From Truepera sp. (lineage in GTDB: Bacteria > Deinococcota > Deinococci > Deinococcales > Trueperaceae), in assembly GCA_965218435.1 (NCBI GenBank), contig CBDCKW010000009.1:32001-96000 (forward strand): 64,000 nt of DNA, read 5' to 3'. A program made the translations under genes and the position numbers. The notes below the pieces were generated by a model. It saw only the letters and a list, made by a program, of their open reading frames with translations. It was not told where the DNA came from and made no database searches. Positions 2,459 through 9,932 of this stretch are shown here, piece after piece. Each line of letters opens with the position of its first letter. Position 1 is the stretch's first letter.

Positions 2459-3277
2459 TTAACCAACGCTTACAGCTTTTAAGGCCACAAAGAGCGGAAT
2501 ATCCAACGTCTCTTTTTTCGTCGTTTTCTCTACGTTCGGGTCAGGGAGTTCGTCTAAACGCTCGAGTAAAAATCCCAACTCACTCAGCGTATTGATGTAC
2601 TCACTCAGGGGCCGGTGAAAGCTCATCGTCGTGCCCGACGCCCGCGCCGACACCTCGGCGTAAGCTTTCATCGGGACGCCCCGTGGGGTCAGATACGAGT
2701 CTACGCGCCGGTACGTCAGCTTCCGCCCCGGGTCGAAGCCCCAGCCACTCTGCCGCGGGACTCGGAACGCCGGGTGCAGCATAAAGATCACGATACGCGC
2801 CGCTGGTTTAAGCGCCCACGCTGCCGCTGCCAGCACCTCACTTAGCGGGTCCATATCCTGAATGCTGAGCATAAACACGGCAACGTCAGCACTGCCCGCT
2901 TGTATTTCGGGTAGTGAACTGAGCTTACGCACGTCTCCCACGATAAATTCTGGGGCAAACTGCGCTTTACCTTTAGCGTTCTCCCCGTGATGTTTGCGGG
3001 CAAGCTGGACAAGCGTCCGGCTGCCGTCTAAGCCTTGATACCGCGCACCTCTCTTAAGCACATGCGGCGCTAAGACACCCTGACCGCACCCCAAATCGAG
3101 GAGCAGTTCGCCGGGTTTAGGGTCGGCGAGTTCCATCACTTCGGGGATAGCGACAGCCCGGTGGTACAAGCTGCCCTTTTTACCGACCCAGCCGTTGTAC
3201 CACTTGGCCACCGGGTCCCAGTGCGTCTGACGCTGAAGTTTGGGTTTAAGCGTTTTCTTGCTTGGTTTGGTCGTCAA
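2459..3277 (-). CDS. class I SAM-dependent methyltransferase
   Basis: LDLGCGQG motif I; FHRPLSEY C-terminal motif. Confidence 0.88.
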   Translation of the reverse strand: MTTKPSKKTLKPKLQRQTHWDPVAKWYNGWVGKKGSLYHRAVAIPEVMELADPKPGELLLDLGCGQGVLAPHVLKRGARYQGLDGSRTLVQLARKHHGENAKGKAQFAPEFIVGDVRKLSSLPEIQAGSADVAVFMLSIQDMDPLSEVLAAAAWALKPAARIVIFMLHPAFRVPRQSGWGFDPGRKLTYRRVDSYLTPRGVPMKAYAEVSARASGTTMSFHRPLSEYINTLSELGFLLERLDELPDPNVEKTTKKETLDIPLFVALKAVSVG

Positions 3278-3367
3278 AAAAACCTCGTGAGTCAGCCATA
3301 AAGTGGAAGCCAGCGTATCACGAGGGACAATTTACGGTGGTAGTGAGGAGCCGTATATGCTAAGCAG

Positions 3368-3889
3368 ATGGCTGAGCGGAGTGAAGTCTTGTTTATCGGC
3401 GGACGTTCGGGCGTGGGGAAGACTAGGGTGGCGCTCGAGCTCCACCACCAACTCTCCGCGCAACGGGTCAAGCACTGCGTTATTGAAGGCGACAATCTCG
3501 ACCAAGCGTACCCGCCGCCGTGGGAGCATGGGCACAAGCTAGCAGAGCAAAACTTGGCGGCGATGTGGACAAACTACCGCGCACTGGGGTATCGCCGCGT
3601 CATCTACACGAATACCGTGAGCGTCCTCGAGACCGCAGGTTTAAGTGCTGCAATGGGGGACGCCCCTATTGTCAAAGCTGTGTTGCTGCAAGCGTCCGAC
3701 AGCACGGTAAAGAGAAGACTCGAGCTGCGCGAATCGGCTGCCACCCTGCAATCTCATTTGAAAAGGAGCCGGTTGCGGGCGGCTGAACTGGGGCAATACG
3801 CTCCACCTTGGGTGTGGCGAATTGATACCGATGGTAAAGACAGCCCCGCGGTTGCAGAGGAGATTTTGGGGCTGCTCGGCTGGACGTAG
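3368..3889 (+). CDS. small P-loop nucleotide kinase-like protein
   Basis: Walker A GGRSGVGKT and IEGD; TATGCT 6 nt before ATG. Confidence 0.75.
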   Translation: MAERSEVLFIGGRSGVGKTRVALELHHQLSAQRVKHCVIEGDNLDQAYPPPWEHGHKLAEQNLAAMWTNYRALGYRRVIYTNTVSVLETAGLSAAMGDAPIVKAVLLQASDSTVKRRLELRESAATLQSHLKRSRLRAAELGQYAPPWVWRIDTDGKDSPAVAEEILGLLGWT

Positions 3890-3910
3890 CTTATATTTCT
3901 AAGAAAGGGC

Positions 3911-3939
3911 TTGACATTTTCACCTTACTCAGCTAGGCT
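3911..3939 (+). promoter_or_regulatory. sigma70-type promoter for the leader/ABC operon
   Basis: TTGACA (3911-3916), 17-nt spacer, TAGGCT (3934-3939). Confidence 0.75.
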
Positions 3940-3983
3940 CATGAAGCCTACTAGAGGCGACCTCAGAAAGGGAGCGGTGCAAC

Positions 3984-4097
3984 ATGAAACAATTTTTCGC
4001 TGACAAGACCAGCATCATCCTCACCGCTTTTACCCGTGTGCTCGGCGACATTGGTGACAATGTACCGCTTGCACAGGAGAGGTCTGCCCAGACGTAG
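3984..4097 (+). CDS. putative 37-aa leader peptide MKQFFADKTSIILTAFTRVLGDIGDNVPLAQERSAQT
   Basis: purine-rich SD (GAAAGGGAG) upstream of ATG; lies between promoter and terminator; absent from the ORF track. Confidence 0.65.
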   Translation: MKQFFADKTSIILTAFTRVLGDIGDNVPLAQERSAQT

Positions 4098-4115
4098 CCG
4101 TTTAGTAAATACTCG

Positions 4116-4154
4116 AGGCCGTGGGAGACCCAACCGTCCCCACGGCCTTTTTTT
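4116..4154 (+). terminator. intrinsic terminator within the operon leader (attenuator)
   Basis: stem AGGCCGTGGG/CCCACGGCCT with inner GAC/GTC, followed by T7. Confidence 0.85.
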
Positions 4155-4222
4155 GCTCTCTCACCTCGGAGCGTGCCTAGGGGACAACTTGCGGAAAGAG
4201 GATGACCCTTTAGGAACGCACC

Positions 4223-4375
4223 ATGCCGAGCACACTACAAACCATAGACCAAGCTACCCTCACGTTGCTTACCCACTATTTTTCTAGCCTCGAGTCCTCG
4301 GCCGCGTCTTCCGTAAAAAGGCTGAAGCGCGATCTCAGCACCTTCCTTACACTGCATCTGTCTGGAGATTTATGA
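4223..4375 (+). CDS. putative 50-aa small ORF coupled to the ABC gene
   Basis: AGGA SD, ATG at 4223; TGA overlaps the ABC start as ATGA. Confidence 0.35.
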   Translation: MPSTLQTIDQATLTLLTHYFSSLESSAASSVKRLKRDLSTFLTLHLSGDL

Positions 4376-6156
4376 TTCCGCTGGCCCGCTACGCCAAACT
4401 TTTAGGCCACTATCTGCGCCCGCAGTGGCGCACTGCCGCGCTGATGGCAACGCTGTTACTCGTCAGCATCGGCTTACAGCTCTTAGTACCGCAGATTTTA
4501 CGGTTTTTTATTGATACGGCTAGGGCTGGCGGGAGCTTGGAGTCATTAACTCGAGCCGCCCTCCTCTTTTTGGGTGTTGCGGTCGTGACGCAGCTTCTCA
4601 GTGCTGCCGCCACTTACTACGCTGCCGACGTCGGGTGGACGGCCACCAACGCCATGCGTGAAGACCTAGCACGGCACTGCCTGGAGCTCGATATGAGCTT
4701 TCACACGGCCCGCACCCCCGGCGAACTGATCGAACGCATTGACGGTGACGTCACGGCGTTATCGAACTTCTTTTCACAGTTTTCGGTACGCGTTTTTGGC
4801 GGGGCACTGATGCTCATCGGAATTTTGGTGATTTTGTGGCTCGAGAGTCCCCCGGTTGGTATCGCCCTGACGGGGTTTACCCTCACGGTTTTCGTCGCCC
4901 TCTTTCTAACCCGGAACGTTGCTGTCGCTGCTACCAAAGACGAACGCGAGTCGAGCGCCCAACTTTTCGGCTTTGTCGAAGAGCGTTTGGCCGGTCTTGA
5001 CGACCTCCGCGCGAACGGCGGTGGCGCTTACGCCATGCAGAGTTTTACCCATGTCGCCCGTAACTTTTTCTCTCGGGGCCGCCGCGCCTGGATGAAGCGG
5101 TCGTCGGTGTGGATGCTCTCTTACGGGATGTTTACGGTGGGCGACCTGATTACTTTAGGCGCAGCGATCTACCTCTTTCAGCAGGGCAGCATCACGCTGG
5201 GAACGGCGTACTTGTTTTTTCAGTACATGCTGATGTTAGAAGAACCCATCGAGCAGATTACGCAGCAGATGCAAGAGTTGCAAAAAGCTGGAGCAGGCAT
5301 TGGGCGGATTGACGAACTCTTTGCGCTTCAAAGTGAGTTGCCGAGGGGAAAAGACACGGCGTTACCGAGTGGTGCGTTGCCCCTTAGTTTTGAACATTTG
5401 GGCTTTGCCTACGGCGATAAACGCATCTTGGACGACGTGAGCTTTCGCTTGGAAGCTGGCAAGGTTTTAGGTCTGCTGGGCCGCACGGGAAGTGGGAAGA
5501 CGACCCTGACTCGGTTAATCTTCAGGCTTTATGACCCGACTTCAGGCAGCGTCAAGCTCGGCGGGGTAGACACGCGAGACGCTCTCCCCGAATCGTTACG
5601 TGAACGCGTCGGCATGGTTACCCAAGAGGTGCAGCTCTTTCACGCGTCGGTACGCGACAACCTGACTTTCTTTAGCAGTGATATTTCAGACGAGCGCATC
5701 ACCGCGGTTTTACGGGACCTCGGGTTGGGAACTTGGTTGGGTGGGCTCGAGCACGGCTTAGACACGATGCTGGCCGCAAGTGGCGGCGGGCTTTCGGCGG
5801 GACAGGCGCAGCTACTCGCGTTCGCCCGCGTGTTTCTCAAAGACCCCGGTTTGGTCATCCTGGATGAACCCTCGTCTCGCCTCGACCCGGCAACCGAAAA
5901 GCTTTTAGAACGCGCGGTAGACAAACTTTTACGGAGCCGCACGGCAATCATCATCGCGCACCGTTTAGAAACCGTCCGGCGTGCCGACGATATCCTCATC
6001 TTGCAAGACGGACACATTTTGGAACACGGCGCACGTCAGGCGTTGGTGCGCTCAGATTCGCACTTTGCGCGGCTCTTAAAAGCCGGGGGGCAGTCCGACT
6101 TGGACGACCCGGAATTGGAAGAGGCGCTCGAGGATACCCTTAAGGAACCCGCATGA
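4372..6156 (+). CDS. ABC exporter half-transporter (TMD+NBD), subunit 1
   Basis: N-terminal TMD; GRTGSGKT, LSAGQ, ILDE, AHR. Confidence 0.95.
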   Translation: MIPLARYAKLLGHYLRPQWRTAALMATLLLVSIGLQLLVPQILRFFIDTARAGGSLESLTRAALLFLGVAVVTQLLSAAATYYAADVGWTATNAMREDLARHCLELDMSFHTARTPGELIERIDGDVTALSNFFSQFSVRVFGGALMLIGILVILWLESPPVGIALTGFTLTVFVALFLTRNVAVAATKDERESSAQLFGFVEERLAGLDDLRANGGGAYAMQSFTHVARNFFSRGRRAWMKRSSVWMLSYGMFTVGDLITLGAAIYLFQQGSITLGTAYLFFQYMLMLEEPIEQITQQMQELQKAGAGIGRIDELFALQSELPRGKDTALPSGALPLSFEHLGFAYGDKRILDDVSFRLEAGKVLGLLGRTGSGKTTLTRLIFRLYDPTSGSVKLGGVDTRDALPESLRERVGMVTQEVQLFHASVRDNLTFFSSDISDERITAVLRDLGLGTWLGGLEHGLDTMLAASGGGLSAGQAQLLAFARVFLKDPGLVILDEPSSRLDPATEKLLERAVDKLLRSRTAIIIAHRLETVRRADDILILQDGHILEHGARQALVRSDSHFARLLKAGGQSDLDDPELEEALEDTLKEPA

Positions 6157-6755
6157 GCAAGTTGCATCTTAAAACAGAACGTCTGGTCATCCGCGAGTTT
6201 GTAGAGGAAGACTGGCAGGACATCGCGGAAAAACGTACTCAGGCAGAGGTCGCACGTTACGAGCCTTGGGATACGACCAGCTGGGCCGAGCGGGAAAGGG
6301 TCGTTGGGCGCATCCGGGAGCAGCGTGCGCTCACCTTCGATATGTTCGGCAAGTACACAGAGTTCGCCGCCGTGCTAGGGGACAAGGCCATCGGCAGCGT
6401 CGGCGTCAAGCGCCTGAGCGACGTCCATCAGGACGCTGAGGTGGGCTGGGTCTTTGGCGCTCTTTATTGGGGTCAAGGCTACGCCACCGAAGCTGCACGC
6501 GCCCTGATGGACTGGAGCTTTCGGACACTCGAGCTGCACCGCATCACCGCCGTATGCGACGCCCGCAACGTCCCCTCGTACCGGCTTATGGAACGCCTCG
6601 GGATGCGGCGAGAAGCTCACCACGTCAAGAGCTACTTCTCGAAAGGGGAGTGGACAGATGACCTCGTGTACGCCGTCCTCAAAGACGAATGGCTGCACCG
6701 TCCGCCGCCCCGCTACACCGTTCTCGCGCCGGTACACCATGAGGAACCCGTATGA
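6153..6755 (+). CDS. GNAT acetyltransferase, RimJ/RimL-like
   Basis: [26 protein letters not shown]. Confidence 0.9.
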
Positions 6756-8548
6756 CCACCCAAACAGCAACCACTTCACCTACCTGGACGACGCTGCGTT
6801 ACATGCGCCGCCTCGTCTCGTATCGCCCCGGCTTGTTCGCCGTCAATCTCATCTTGTGGGGCGTCGTTCACCTTTTACCGGTGCTGTTTCCGGTGCTGAT
6901 TGCACAACTGCTCGACGGTTTAGAGGGCAAAGCCGCGTTTGGCTGGAGCCCCTGGACGTTTCTGATCTTGCTGACGGCGCTCAACGTCGGGCGTATCGGC
7001 GTGTTTATTCCGGCGATCTACGTGTGGGCGACGCTCTGGTACGAGTCGGGGCTCTTGCTGCGGCGTAACCTGATCAACTATTTGACTCGCGCACCCGGCT
7101 CACGCGTCTTGCCCGATTCGCCCTCAGAGGCGGTCAGCCGCTTTCGTGATGATGTAGACGAGGTGTCGCTGCTCGTTGAGACCTGGGTGGACTCGAGCGG
7201 TCTCATCTTGTCGGCGCTCGTGTCGTTTGTGATCATGTACCGCGTCAGTCCGGTAGTCACGCTGGCAGTTGCCGCGCCGCTACTACTAATGCTCGTTTTG
7301 ACGCGGGGGTTTACCGAACGCATCCGCCGCTACCGCCGCCGCAGCCGCGAGGCGACGGGGCGCGTGACGAGTTTTATCGGTGAGACGTTTGCGGCGGTGC
7401 AGGCCGTAAAAGTGGCAGGCCGTGAAGCGCCCATCACTGAGCACTTTCGCAGCCTGAACCGGACGCGGCGGCAAGCAGCCCTTAAAGACACGCTCTTGAC
7501 CGAGTTTTTACGGGGAGCGAACGCGAATATGACGAATATCGGGACCGGCATCGTGTTGCTCTTATCGGCACGGGCGATGCTTGGGGGTGGCTTTTCCATC
7601 GGCGACTTCGCCTTGTTCGCCTTTTATCTGCCGCGCCTCACGAGCATTATGGCGTTTGCCGGAGACATGATGGCGCAGCATAAACGCGCCGGGGTGTCGT
7701 TCGAGCGGATGACGCGGCTGTTGCAAGACGCACCGCCGGAAACGCTCGTCGAGCACGCACCGCTGCACCTCCGAGGCGATGTGCCCGAAGTCGTTGCGCC
7801 GCCGCCCGTGGCGGGGGAGAGGTTGGAGAAGCTCGAGCTTCGTAACTTAAGCTTTCACTATCCTGGTACCCGAAACGGCGTGACGGACATTAGTTTTAGC
7901 CTAAACCGTGATTCATTTACGGTTGTCACCGGGCGTATCGGGAGCGGGAAGACGACCCTACTCCGCACCCTGATGGGCCTCGTGCCCAAAGATTCCGGTG
8001 AGATTTTGTGGAACAGCGAACCTGTTAAAGACCCGGCCTCGTGGTTTGTCCCGCCGAGGAGCGCCTACACTGCACAGGTACCGCGCCTCTTCTCGGATTC
8101 GCTCCGGCAAAATATCCTGATGGGGCGTGTGGGTGAAGACGCTGCACTGGACGACGTAGTGGACTTGGCCGTGATGACCCACGATGTGCGGGGGCTCGAG
8201 CTGGGTCTCGACACCCTCGTCGGCACACGCGGCGTCAAACTTTCGGGCGGACAGGTACAGCGTTCCTCAGCTGCCCGGATGTTTTTACGCGGGGCCGACC
8301 TCTTGATCTTCGATGACCTCTCCTCAGCCCTCGATGTGGAAACCGAAGCGCGGCTCTGGCAACAGCTTTTTGCCAAACAGCAGGTGACGTGCCTCGTCGT
8401 CTCTCACCGTCGCGCCGCCTTAAGACGCGCCGACCACATCATCGTTTTGCAAGATGGGCGCGTTGAAGCTGAAGGGACGTTGGATGAGCTGTTGGAGACA
8501 TCAAAGGAGATGCAGCGGCTCTGGGCGGAGGAGGTCACAGCTTCATGA
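6752..8548 (+). CDS. ABC exporter half-transporter (TMD+NBD), subunit 2 with degenerate Walker B
   Basis: [18 protein letters not shown] (E to D), SHR. Confidence 0.95.
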
Positions 8549-9114
8549 ATCTGAGAAATACTGCTTCAGTGACGATTCGGCCTGCAACATTAGAGGACGC
8601 TGCTGGTCTCGGCATAGTACAGCTCGACAGCTGGCACACGACTGACGGTGCGCACATCAAACCTCAAAGTTGGTGGGCGCAGTTCTCCTACCCGCAACGC
8701 GCGGAAGCGTGGCGCACGTTACTCACATCAGACCGCCCCGTGCTTGTCCTAACTGCTGAAATTGAGGGTGACGTAATCGGGTTTGCCTGGTGTGAGCGCA
8801 ACAGTGGCGAGTTCACAACGTTCGAGGCAGAACTGAGCGCCATTCATCTGCTGCCCTCAGTACGCGGACAGGGAGTAGGACGGAAACTGATGCGCGAAAC
8901 TGCGCGGAACCTTGATAATCTAGGATTTCATTCGCTCCTTCTTTGGACGGGCTTGCTCAACAAGCGAGCGCAAGCGTTTTATCAAAAGCTTAACGGCACG
9001 CTTTTAGGTGAGAAGTCTACCAACCTCGGTGATTTCTCTTTCGCTGAGGTGGCCTATGGCTGGTCAGACCTCGAGTTGCTTGTAACAGCGTCTTCAAAGA
9101 TAAGCTCGTCTTGA
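8545..9114 (+). CDS. GNAT family N-acetyltransferase
   Basis: [26 protein letters not shown]. Confidence 0.88.
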
Positions 9115-9175
9115 ATAAAGCAACGAGCAGTGAGTGGGTAAACCTAGGTACGTCAAGCTGAAGAAAGGATGATCC

Positions 9176-9892
9176 GTGGACAAAACTATTTCTACCACAA
9201 CACGACCGCGCTGGCTTTTTGACGAATTTCAAGATTTTGGCTGGTCGGACATAAAAGAGATTGAGGCATATGACGAGAAATCAGGGGTCAACCCCGAACT
9301 CGAGCGTAAACGCCTGCTAGAGCTGGGAGTTGCAGAAGGCCATACACTTATTGACTTTGGCTGCGGTACGGGCGCGTTGGCTCTGGAAGCTGCGAAACTC
9401 TGCAAAAAAGTTATCGCCGTGGATGTGTCAGCAGCGATGCTCGCCTACACGAAACGTAAAGCCGAACCGCTCGGTCTAGCTAACATTGACTATGTACAGC
9501 AGGGATTTTTGACCTATCAGCATCGGGGTAAGCCTGTAGATTTTGTGTTCACGCAGCGAACCCTACATCATCTTCCCGATTTCTGGAAAGTGCAGGCGCT
9601 TCAGCATATGGCAGACGTGCTTAAACCTGGCGGCACGATGTTCGTCAGAGATATTTTGTTCTCGTTCGAGCCGCATGAAACTGATGACGCGGTAGAAGCT
9701 TGGGTCAGCAGCCGTCCCGCCAACAGTTTCCCGCGTGAGTTTTTTGAATACGACATCCGCGAGGAGTACATCACTTTTACCTGGCTGTTTGAGGCAATGT
9801 TAGAACGCGTCGGCTTTGACATCAAGGGAGTGTCGTACGGTGACTATCAGGCTTATGCTAAATACGTTTGTGTGGAAAGAAGCGATGGGTAA
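9176..9892 (+). CDS. class I SAM-dependent methyltransferase
   Basis: IDFGCGTG, VDVS, LHHLPDFWK, LKPGG. Confidence 0.9.
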   Translation: MDKTISTTTRPRWLFDEFQDFGWSDIKEIEAYDEKSGVNPELERKRLLELGVAEGHTLIDFGCGTGALALEAAKLCKKVIAVDVSAAMLAYTKRKAEPLGLANIDYVQQGFLTYQHRGKPVDFVFTQRTLHHLPDFWKVQALQHMADVLKPGGTMFVRDILFSFEPHETDDAVEAWVSSRPANSFPREFFEYDIREEYITFTWLFEAMLERVGFDIKGVSYGDYQAYAKYVCVERSDG

Positions 9893-9898
9893 AAAAGT

Positions 9899-9932
9899 AA
9901 CGAGCAGTGAGGTTTAGTCCCTACTGCTCGTT
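9899..9932. terminator. hairpin between convergent genes
   Basis: AACGAGCAGT/ACTGCTCGTT inverted repeat, with an A-tract on the left. Confidence 0.65.

Follow-up and report, generated by a model that had tools for sequence, protein, structure and literature searches.

Organization of the exporter locus

The window, a 64,000-nucleotide stretch of a Truepera sp. contig (CBDCKW010000009.1), carries a pair of type IV ABC exporter genes preceded by a leader (3911–4154) with a promoter, an upstream ORF (uORF) and an intrinsic terminator (Table 1). The bacterial structures nearest to subunit 1 are 7ocy_B, TM_0288, and Sav1866, and the closest named homologues belong to Truepera and Trueperaceae (80–91% identity). 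Neither member of the ABC pair attains a cut-off of the named families shown. A degenerate Walker B motif in one subunit is typical of heterodimeric exporters. The initial annotation took an ABC exporter/GNAT/methyltransferase operon as the target of the leader; of this, the ABC pair is constant among the 10 relatives compared, whereas the two GNATs and the methyltransferase are lineage-specific additions (counts in Table 1). A 21-nt direct repeat at 9114–9134 and 9891–9911 flanks the methyltransferase gene and suggests a recent insertion; the second copy of the repeat also forms one side of a hairpin (9899–9932) with a U-tract serving a convergent cyclase gene. Directly 5′ of the leader lies a small AAA/kinase-like gene (3368–3889), which is common to the closest relatives only.

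Table 1. Features of the leader and of the genes behind it, with positions in the window.
Feature	Position	Strand	Remarks
σ70-type promoter, TTGACA-17-TAGGCT	3911–3939	+	−35 TTGACA 3911–3916, 17-nt spacer, −10 TAGGCT 3934–3939 (from sequence)
Small 5′ hairpin	3946–3958	+	Predicted; takes up strand 1 once the antiterminator forms; in the ribosome-masked fold of 6/6 same-genus leaders
Strand 1, anti-antiterminator	3956–3964	+	Pairs with 4079–4088; in MFE and centroid folds
uORF Shine-Dalgarno (SD)	3969–3979 (AGGGAG 3969–3974)	+	Predicted to pair with 4022–4031 in the untranslated leader
uORF, 37 codons	3984–4097	+	Position conserved; sequence and length (19–87 aa across the family) not conserved
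Strand 2, switch strand, conserved core GGTCTGCC	4079–4094	+	Partner is strand 1 or 3; lies under a ribosome terminating at the uORF stop
Intrinsic terminator	4116–4154	+	Strand 3, 4116–4130; strand 4, 4136–4148; T7, 4148–4154; hairpin 4116–4148, −26.6 kcal/mol
Small hairpin directly 3′ of the U-tract	4155–4172	+	Sequence kept in 6/6 same-genus loci; local hairpin in 3/6 MFE folds
Second small ORF, 50 aa	4223–4375	+	Stop overlaps the ABC start; ORF in 6/6 same-genus loci, overlap in 5/6; weak C-terminal similarity
Type IV ABC exporter subunit 1	4372–6156	+	ABC_membrane and ABC_tran; consensus Walker B; below all NCBIfam cut-offs shown
RimJ/RimL-type GNAT (GNAT1)	6153–6755	+	PF13302; between the two ABC genes; in 1/10 relatives
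Type IV ABC exporter subunit 2	6752–8548	+	Walker B LIFDD, degenerate site; after subunit 1 in 10/10 relatives
GNAT (GNAT2)	8545–9114	+	PF00583; in 0/10 relatives
Class I SAM methyltransferase	9176–9892	+	21-nt direct repeat on both sides; in 0/10 relatives; operon membership uncertain

The SD, uORF, and GC-rich terminator lie where they had been placed initially. The promoter is also present, the −10 box agreeing with TATAAT at only 3/6 positions; transcription is predicted to start at ∼3946. The terminator stem begins 18 nt past the uORF stop, and 222 nt separate the terminator from the ABC start. A simple promoter and terminator scan listed neither the promoter nor the terminator of the leader, and no promoter-like site in 4155–4371. 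Folding of the 225-nt leader gave z = −4.7, with 0/200 shuffles as stable. When all 615 promoter-like sites of the genome were filtered for an SD-led uORF and a terminator, two passed: the window leader and an ilvB-like leader. A second copy of the window leader, described below (L110), escaped this filter. Elsewhere in the genome (G000:C9 from 1024901, + strand), a promoter, a 38-codon uORF rich in Ile, Leu, and Val, and a terminator precede a gene whose start resembles, by eye, acetolactate synthase; this is likely a classical ilv attenuator.

Competing helices in the window leader

All 11 antiterminator pairs proposed in the initial annotation (4081–4094 with 4120–4130) are standard pairs. 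The anti-antiterminator at 3956–3964 had been overlooked, and with it the leader has three helices (1:2, 2:3, and 3:4) that are mutually exclusive by sequence. Helix 1:2 has a duplex energy of −15.9 kcal/mol, against about −14.5 to −14.7 kcal/mol for helix 2:3; a relaxed version of helix 2:3 reaches −18.6 kcal/mol in folds from which the 3′ arm of the terminator is absent. Of 200 ordinary initiation regions, 96% give a weaker duplex than 1:2. Taken alone, the 2:3 duplex of the window is not above chance (p = 0.125; 12.5% of shuffles do as well), and it is matched by 6 of 43 ordinary gene-end terminators of the same genome.

Folding simulations with a ribosome placed along the uORF gave a 2:3 probability of 0.77–0.99 with the P-site on codons 1–27 and of at most 0.11 from codon 29 onward. 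This agrees with the earlier proposal that a ribosome at the stop masks 4081–4097 and that one stalled sooner allows helix 2:3, and the suggested fold with the end of the uORF masked lost the helix as proposed. With no ribosome the probability was 0.55, and with the start masked 0.49; by a looser measure the two values were 0.78 and 0.89. Strand 1 of the window lies at −28 to −20 relative to the start codon, and masking the start leaves the fold balance unshifted by the stricter measure. On full-length RNA the terminator is the preferred fold (probability 1.0 for the window); of 30 leaders, 27 keep this preference even when the start is masked. Because the terminator wins on full-length RNA, the switch must be kinetic.

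Conservation in Trueperaceae

A homologue of subunit 1 was found in 25 of 41 genomes. Of 18 Trueperaceae genomes that carry the exporter, 16 have the leader architecture. Upstream regions of the orthologous ABC pairs were aligned, a check that the initial annotation had called for, and both the position of the uORF and the core were conserved in the relatives. Fifteen loci (L001–L014 and L025; L026 duplicates L007) have a promoter, a uORF of 19–87 codons with its stop 15–32 nt ahead of the terminator, and the conserved core at the end of the uORF. The promoter follows the pattern TTGAC plus TAnnnT in 14 of the 15.

A covariance model (R1) was built from these 15 leaders. Among 24 other Trueperaceae genomes, it matched 15 of the 17 that carry the exporter and none of the seven that lack it; 14 of these 15 genomes match by construction, the independent one being G006, whose match (L126) lies ahead of the exporter. 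The independent matches as a whole (L035–L038, L040, L044, L126, and L137–L139) are every one ahead of the same exporter. Matches L111, L112, L128, and L130 were dismissed as ordinary terminators or coding sequence.

The model also located a second copy of the leader in the window's own genome (L110, G000:C9:506779–506859, − strand, 41 bits), where blastn and tblastn searches with the window leader gave no match. L110, which lies ahead of an APH-family phosphotransferase gene, has a promoter of its own; its uORF is 48 codons long and ends in ERSADF.

The leader is absent ahead of ABC homologues L015–L024 and the paralogues L027 and L028. Two of these homologues, L016 and L019, carry a different leader ahead of the ABC gene, with a 9–10-codon uORF and a hairpin lacking a U-tract. 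The paralogous pair L027/L028 (G000:C2:46750 and C5:181484; 50% identity) has an exact 14-nt copy of the terminator 5′ arm upstream, without the rest of the leader. Contig C2 of this genome is ∼99% identical to part of C5 over ∼51 kb and is probably an assembly duplicate of it.

Members in Chloroflexota and their downstream genes

Most homologues of the exporter from outside Deinococcota (among L041–L108) lack the leader, and a minority in Chloroflexota have the same design (L041, L049, L053/54, L056/57, L059, L080, L089, L095, L096, and L107). A second model (R2) was prepared from 29 sequences using terminator pairs only, with no 2:3 pairs. It matched 64 of 151 genomes, at 84 places, in the class of G173 (Chloroflexota; Ardenticatenaceae), which we take to be Anaerolineae, and 24 of 151 genomes sampled from Chloroflexota at large. 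In Deinococcota 20 of 151 genomes were matched, including 7 of 12 other Trueperaceae genomes. Among the Deinococcota matches are also three leaders of genus g26 (L167–L169), divergent in sequence and with a TTGCGG promoter, ahead of tandem GNAT genes or a RIO1 kinase gene; 9 of 12 weak matches outside Trueperaceae were dismissed as ordinary terminators or coding sequence. Of five further genomes searched, four gave no match (Paenibacillus, Acidimicrobiia, Bacillota, and Acidobacteria) and the fifth gave two weak matches. Rather than being confined to one locus, the window leader belongs to a family with members in two phyla.

Of the 84 places in the Chloroflexota class, 69 were examined, leaving out the seed, one partial match, and the 13 weakest. 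A promoter was seen in 64 of these (28 of 29 and 36 of 40), and a promoter with an SD-led uORF in 31 of the 40. The leader precedes a gene for efflux, ABC-F, GNAT, or HflX in 61 of the 69 matches: 41 efflux genes (11 type IV exporters, 6 ABC-2 permeases, 21 single ABC ATPases, and 3 MFS transporters), 11 GNATs, 8 two-NBD ABC-F-like genes, and 1 HflX gene, with L244 as a family member ahead of hflX. Four further genes fall in other classes (two HAD, one RIO1, and one AsnA), and four have no family. All four ABC-F proteins checked score above the NF000355 cut-off (ribosomal protection-like); the one ATPase and the one MFS protein checked are nearest to DrrA and to TetA(P)/Tet(40), respectively, each below the cut-off. 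Up to three copies of the leader occur per genome, directly ahead of effector genes and often 50–150 nt from their starts.

Covariation and folding across the family

The terminator is well supported by covariation, with 97% of cells paired and 34 double changes against 9.7 in shuffles. For the antiterminator, pair counts were not above shuffles in the 15-sequence alignment and were marginal with 29 sequences. In an alignment of 99 matches, 78% of cells were paired and 48 double changes were counted against 28.9, with 0/500 shuffles as high; registers slid along the same alignment paired in 29–61% of cells. These 99 matches, from 100 of ∼110 loci, were aligned to R2, which was fitted to the terminator only; relatedness was uncontrolled, and the model selects similar sequences. 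When antiterminator partners were swapped among rows, 0/2000 swaps did as well overall, and 175/2000 within the 22 Trueperaceae rows, which is not significant. By duplex energy, 2:3 beat shuffles at p ≤ 0.05 in 9 of 30 leaders, and 29 of the 30 lay below the median of 43 ordinary terminators.

Before strand 3 exists, the partner of strand 2 is the uORF initiation region (−16 to +15) in 60 of 88 leaders and a site further upstream in another 7; in 43 of the 88 the leader's own 1:2 duplex exceeds 95% of ordinary initiation regions. In the window's genus, strand 1 is located 20–28 nt 5′ of the AUG, and the SD has a helix of its own. That strand 1 is the SD or start region of the uORF itself in most members points to sensitivity to stalling at the initiation stage, as judged from predicted pairing. 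In simulations a terminating ribosome removes helix 2:3 in 84 of 88 leaders, and with a ribosome on the start codon its probability increases in 37 and decreases in 2. Without a ribosome, the median 2:3 probability was 0.67 in 69 Chloroflexota leaders. Helix 2:3 was low at every ribosome position simulated in L006, L011, and L110, and 5 of 30 leaders passed a strict three-state criterion.

Constraint on the uORF core

The uORF peptide of the window, with the C terminus ERSAQT, has no match to a Pfam family. A RiPP precursor was dismissed, as both a conserved peptide and a Pfam family are absent. In Trueperaceae the core is GAG AGG TCT GCC (E-R-S-A); the Chloroflexota version, AGT GCG CCY (S-A-P), is read in a frame shifted by one base. 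The third codon positions of the core hardly vary, with the Ser, Ala, and Pro codons almost without synonymous change, and Ala gives way to Val or Met where pairing is kept; fixed third positions together with Ala changes that preserve pairing indicate that the RNA sets the sequence of the core. Within each lineage, the reading frame of the core is nonetheless fixed (17 of 19 and 58 of 70), spelling R-S-A or R-S-A-P, and of the alternative frames, 27 of 38 and 56 of 138 contain a stop close by. For these codon counts, the automatic anchor misplaced the core in many rows and failed in four, and frames were counted on alignment A3. An arrest peptide of the RAPP, RGPP, or RAGP type was rejected: the window has RSAQ, and the RSAP of its relatives is not among the arrest motifs in the available part of PMC12992588.

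Probable ribosome-controlled attenuation and its alternatives

The leader is probably a ribosome-controlled transcription attenuator, under which the exporter operon would be expressed only when a ribosome stalls within the 37-codon uORF, for instance in the presence of ribosome-targeting antibiotics. In untranslated RNA, strands 1 and 2 would fold together and the terminator would form; it would form as well when a ribosome completes the uORF and sits over strand 2. Were the ribosome instead to stall on the start or anywhere within roughly codons 1–27, strand 2 would be free to capture strand 3 before strand 4 is made, and RNA polymerase would read through.

Given that helix 2:3 already reaches 0.55–0.78 without a ribosome in the window and that full-length RNA favors the terminator, the fate of the untranslated RNA is uncertain, and it is this fate that separates the attenuator above from a whiB7-type one. 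The latter would sense any drop in uORF translation (starvation, slow growth, or recovery from radiation or desiccation); only a terminating ribosome would enforce termination, helix 1:2 would be incidental, and the untranslated leader would read through. We regard this as unlikely. It would account for the helix 2:3 favored without a ribosome in many leaders, for uORFs as long and variable as in whiB7, and for the few targets that are not resistance-like (HAD, RIO1, and AsnA), but it leaves unexplained the placement of strand 1 on the initiation region in most leaders, where it beats ordinary initiation regions, and helix 1:2 can form co-transcriptionally before strand 3 exists.

It is very improbable that the leader is a riboswitch or the target of an antiterminator protein, binding a small molecule or a protein with the uORF incidental to its function. 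Such a role would fit a core more conserved in its nucleotides than in its peptide. It sits poorly with the spacing between strands 1 and 2, which ranges from 19 to 87 codons with no conserved structure between them, and with the retention in most members of an SD-led uORF whose stop falls just past strand 2; moreover, no Rfam family matched at the gathering score when window positions 3000–5000 and 10 loci were searched (best E value, 0.81).

Still less probable is that the leader is a separate gene for a small protein or sRNA, ended by its own terminator, and that a different promoter drives the exporter. The strength of the terminator and the 222 nt that follow it, with room for a second ORF, could suit such a gene; against it, the peptide sequence is not conserved, the antiterminator covaries, the scan listed no promoter-like site between terminator and exporter, and the element recurs directly 5′ of many unrelated gene classes.

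Least probable of all is an amino acid-sensing attenuator (trp or ilv type) or a programmed arrest peptide, to which Ile enrichment in the uORFs (1.8–1.9-fold over gene N termini) and the lineage-fixed frame of the core could be ascribed, since a run of control codons is absent, the targets are not biosynthetic, the two phyla read the core in frames one base apart, the core changes as the RNA pairing rather than the peptide would dictate, and its motif is not a listed arrest motif.

Relation to described leaders

The ribosome-controlled attenuator was compared with described systems, of which the initial annotation had named bmrB. A uORF-coupled attenuator accords with the conservation, the covariation, and the downstream gene classes, and bmrB-bmrCD of Bacillus subtilis likewise places a heterodimeric ABC exporter under leader-ORF attenuation, there induced by ribosome-targeting drugs (PMC4191407 and bioRxiv 2025.01.13.632840, available portions). 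The bmrB terminator, however, lies within its ORF, whereas here the stop is at 4097 and the stem starts at 4116, so that vmlR, rli80, and whiB7 are the closest architectures (PMC4191407, available portion).

In the vmlR leader of B. subtilis, as described in the available part of PMC9226507, a 3-codon uORF lies in a local hairpin with its SD inside the anti-antiterminator, and stalling frees the antiterminator. By architecture, the present leaders share with it a uORF, an antiterminator that excludes an intrinsic terminator, and ABC-F targets (8 of 69 here); they differ in their uORFs of 19–87 codons, a long-range helix 1:2, and a stop codon that also places the ribosome over the antiterminator strand (PMC9226507, same part). 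The rli80-hflXr leader of Listeria monocytogenes is also a three-helix switch with a uORF, and L244 here precedes hflX; the rli80 ORF, though, is 14 aa long and contains an RLR macrolide motif, which has no conserved counterpart here (PMC6310831, available part). With whiB7/wblC the family shares a long, sequence-variable uORF and, by prediction here, a terminator favored by complete translation of that uORF; its target classes resemble the WhiB7-type resistance set, but the whiB7 leader controls one transcription factor, whereas here copies of the RNA lie directly ahead of effector genes (PMC10274678 and PMC11550727, available portions). The amino acid-sensing class (trpL and ilv types) was set aside, as neither clustered control codons nor a biosynthetic target was seen.

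As had been supposed, a search of the literature yielded no described equivalent in Deinococcota: the available part of PMC4007540 lists 14 Deinococcus leader peptides, all for amino acid and tRNA-synthetase genes. No paper on the window leader appeared among those listed by the literature searches; the available part of PMC13613805 reports predicted terminators ahead of many resistance genes, and its supplements could hold members. Attenuators of this kind vary freely in sequence (PMC5314783, available part).

The mechanism class itself is not new; what stands out is that one RNA family recurs, in two phyla, ahead of many classes of resistance-like genes. The antibiotic-sensing attenuators known so far belong to Bacillota and Actinomycetota, where each is the leader of a particular gene. 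A wider reading, which we offer tentatively and find nearly as easy to accept as to doubt, is that a single portable attenuator family, common to Deinococcota and Chloroflexota, has been copied ahead of exporters, ABC-F, HflX, GNAT, and APH- and RIO1-type kinase genes to make up an antibiotic-stress regulon free of any transcription factor. The model might then flag candidate resistance genes of uncultured bacteria from soil and sludge, and the frame-locked R-S-A(-P) core may in addition pause the ribosome on the switch strand. If so, a single sequence-conserved leader ahead of at least seven gene classes would extend antibiotic-sensing attenuation to Deinococcota, and it would serve as a sequence tag for candidate intrinsic-resistance genes (the uncharacterized ABC pair, GNATs, and kinases) in environmental bacteria.

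Elements downstream of the terminator

The second small ORF of the window (4223–4375) is likely to be coupled translationally to the ABC gene, and together with the hairpin at 4155–4172 it may possibly form a second, translational layer of regulation. In several Chloroflexota leaders (L053, L080, L089, L095, L096, L107, L172, L173, and L235), a second, similar terminator follows the first.
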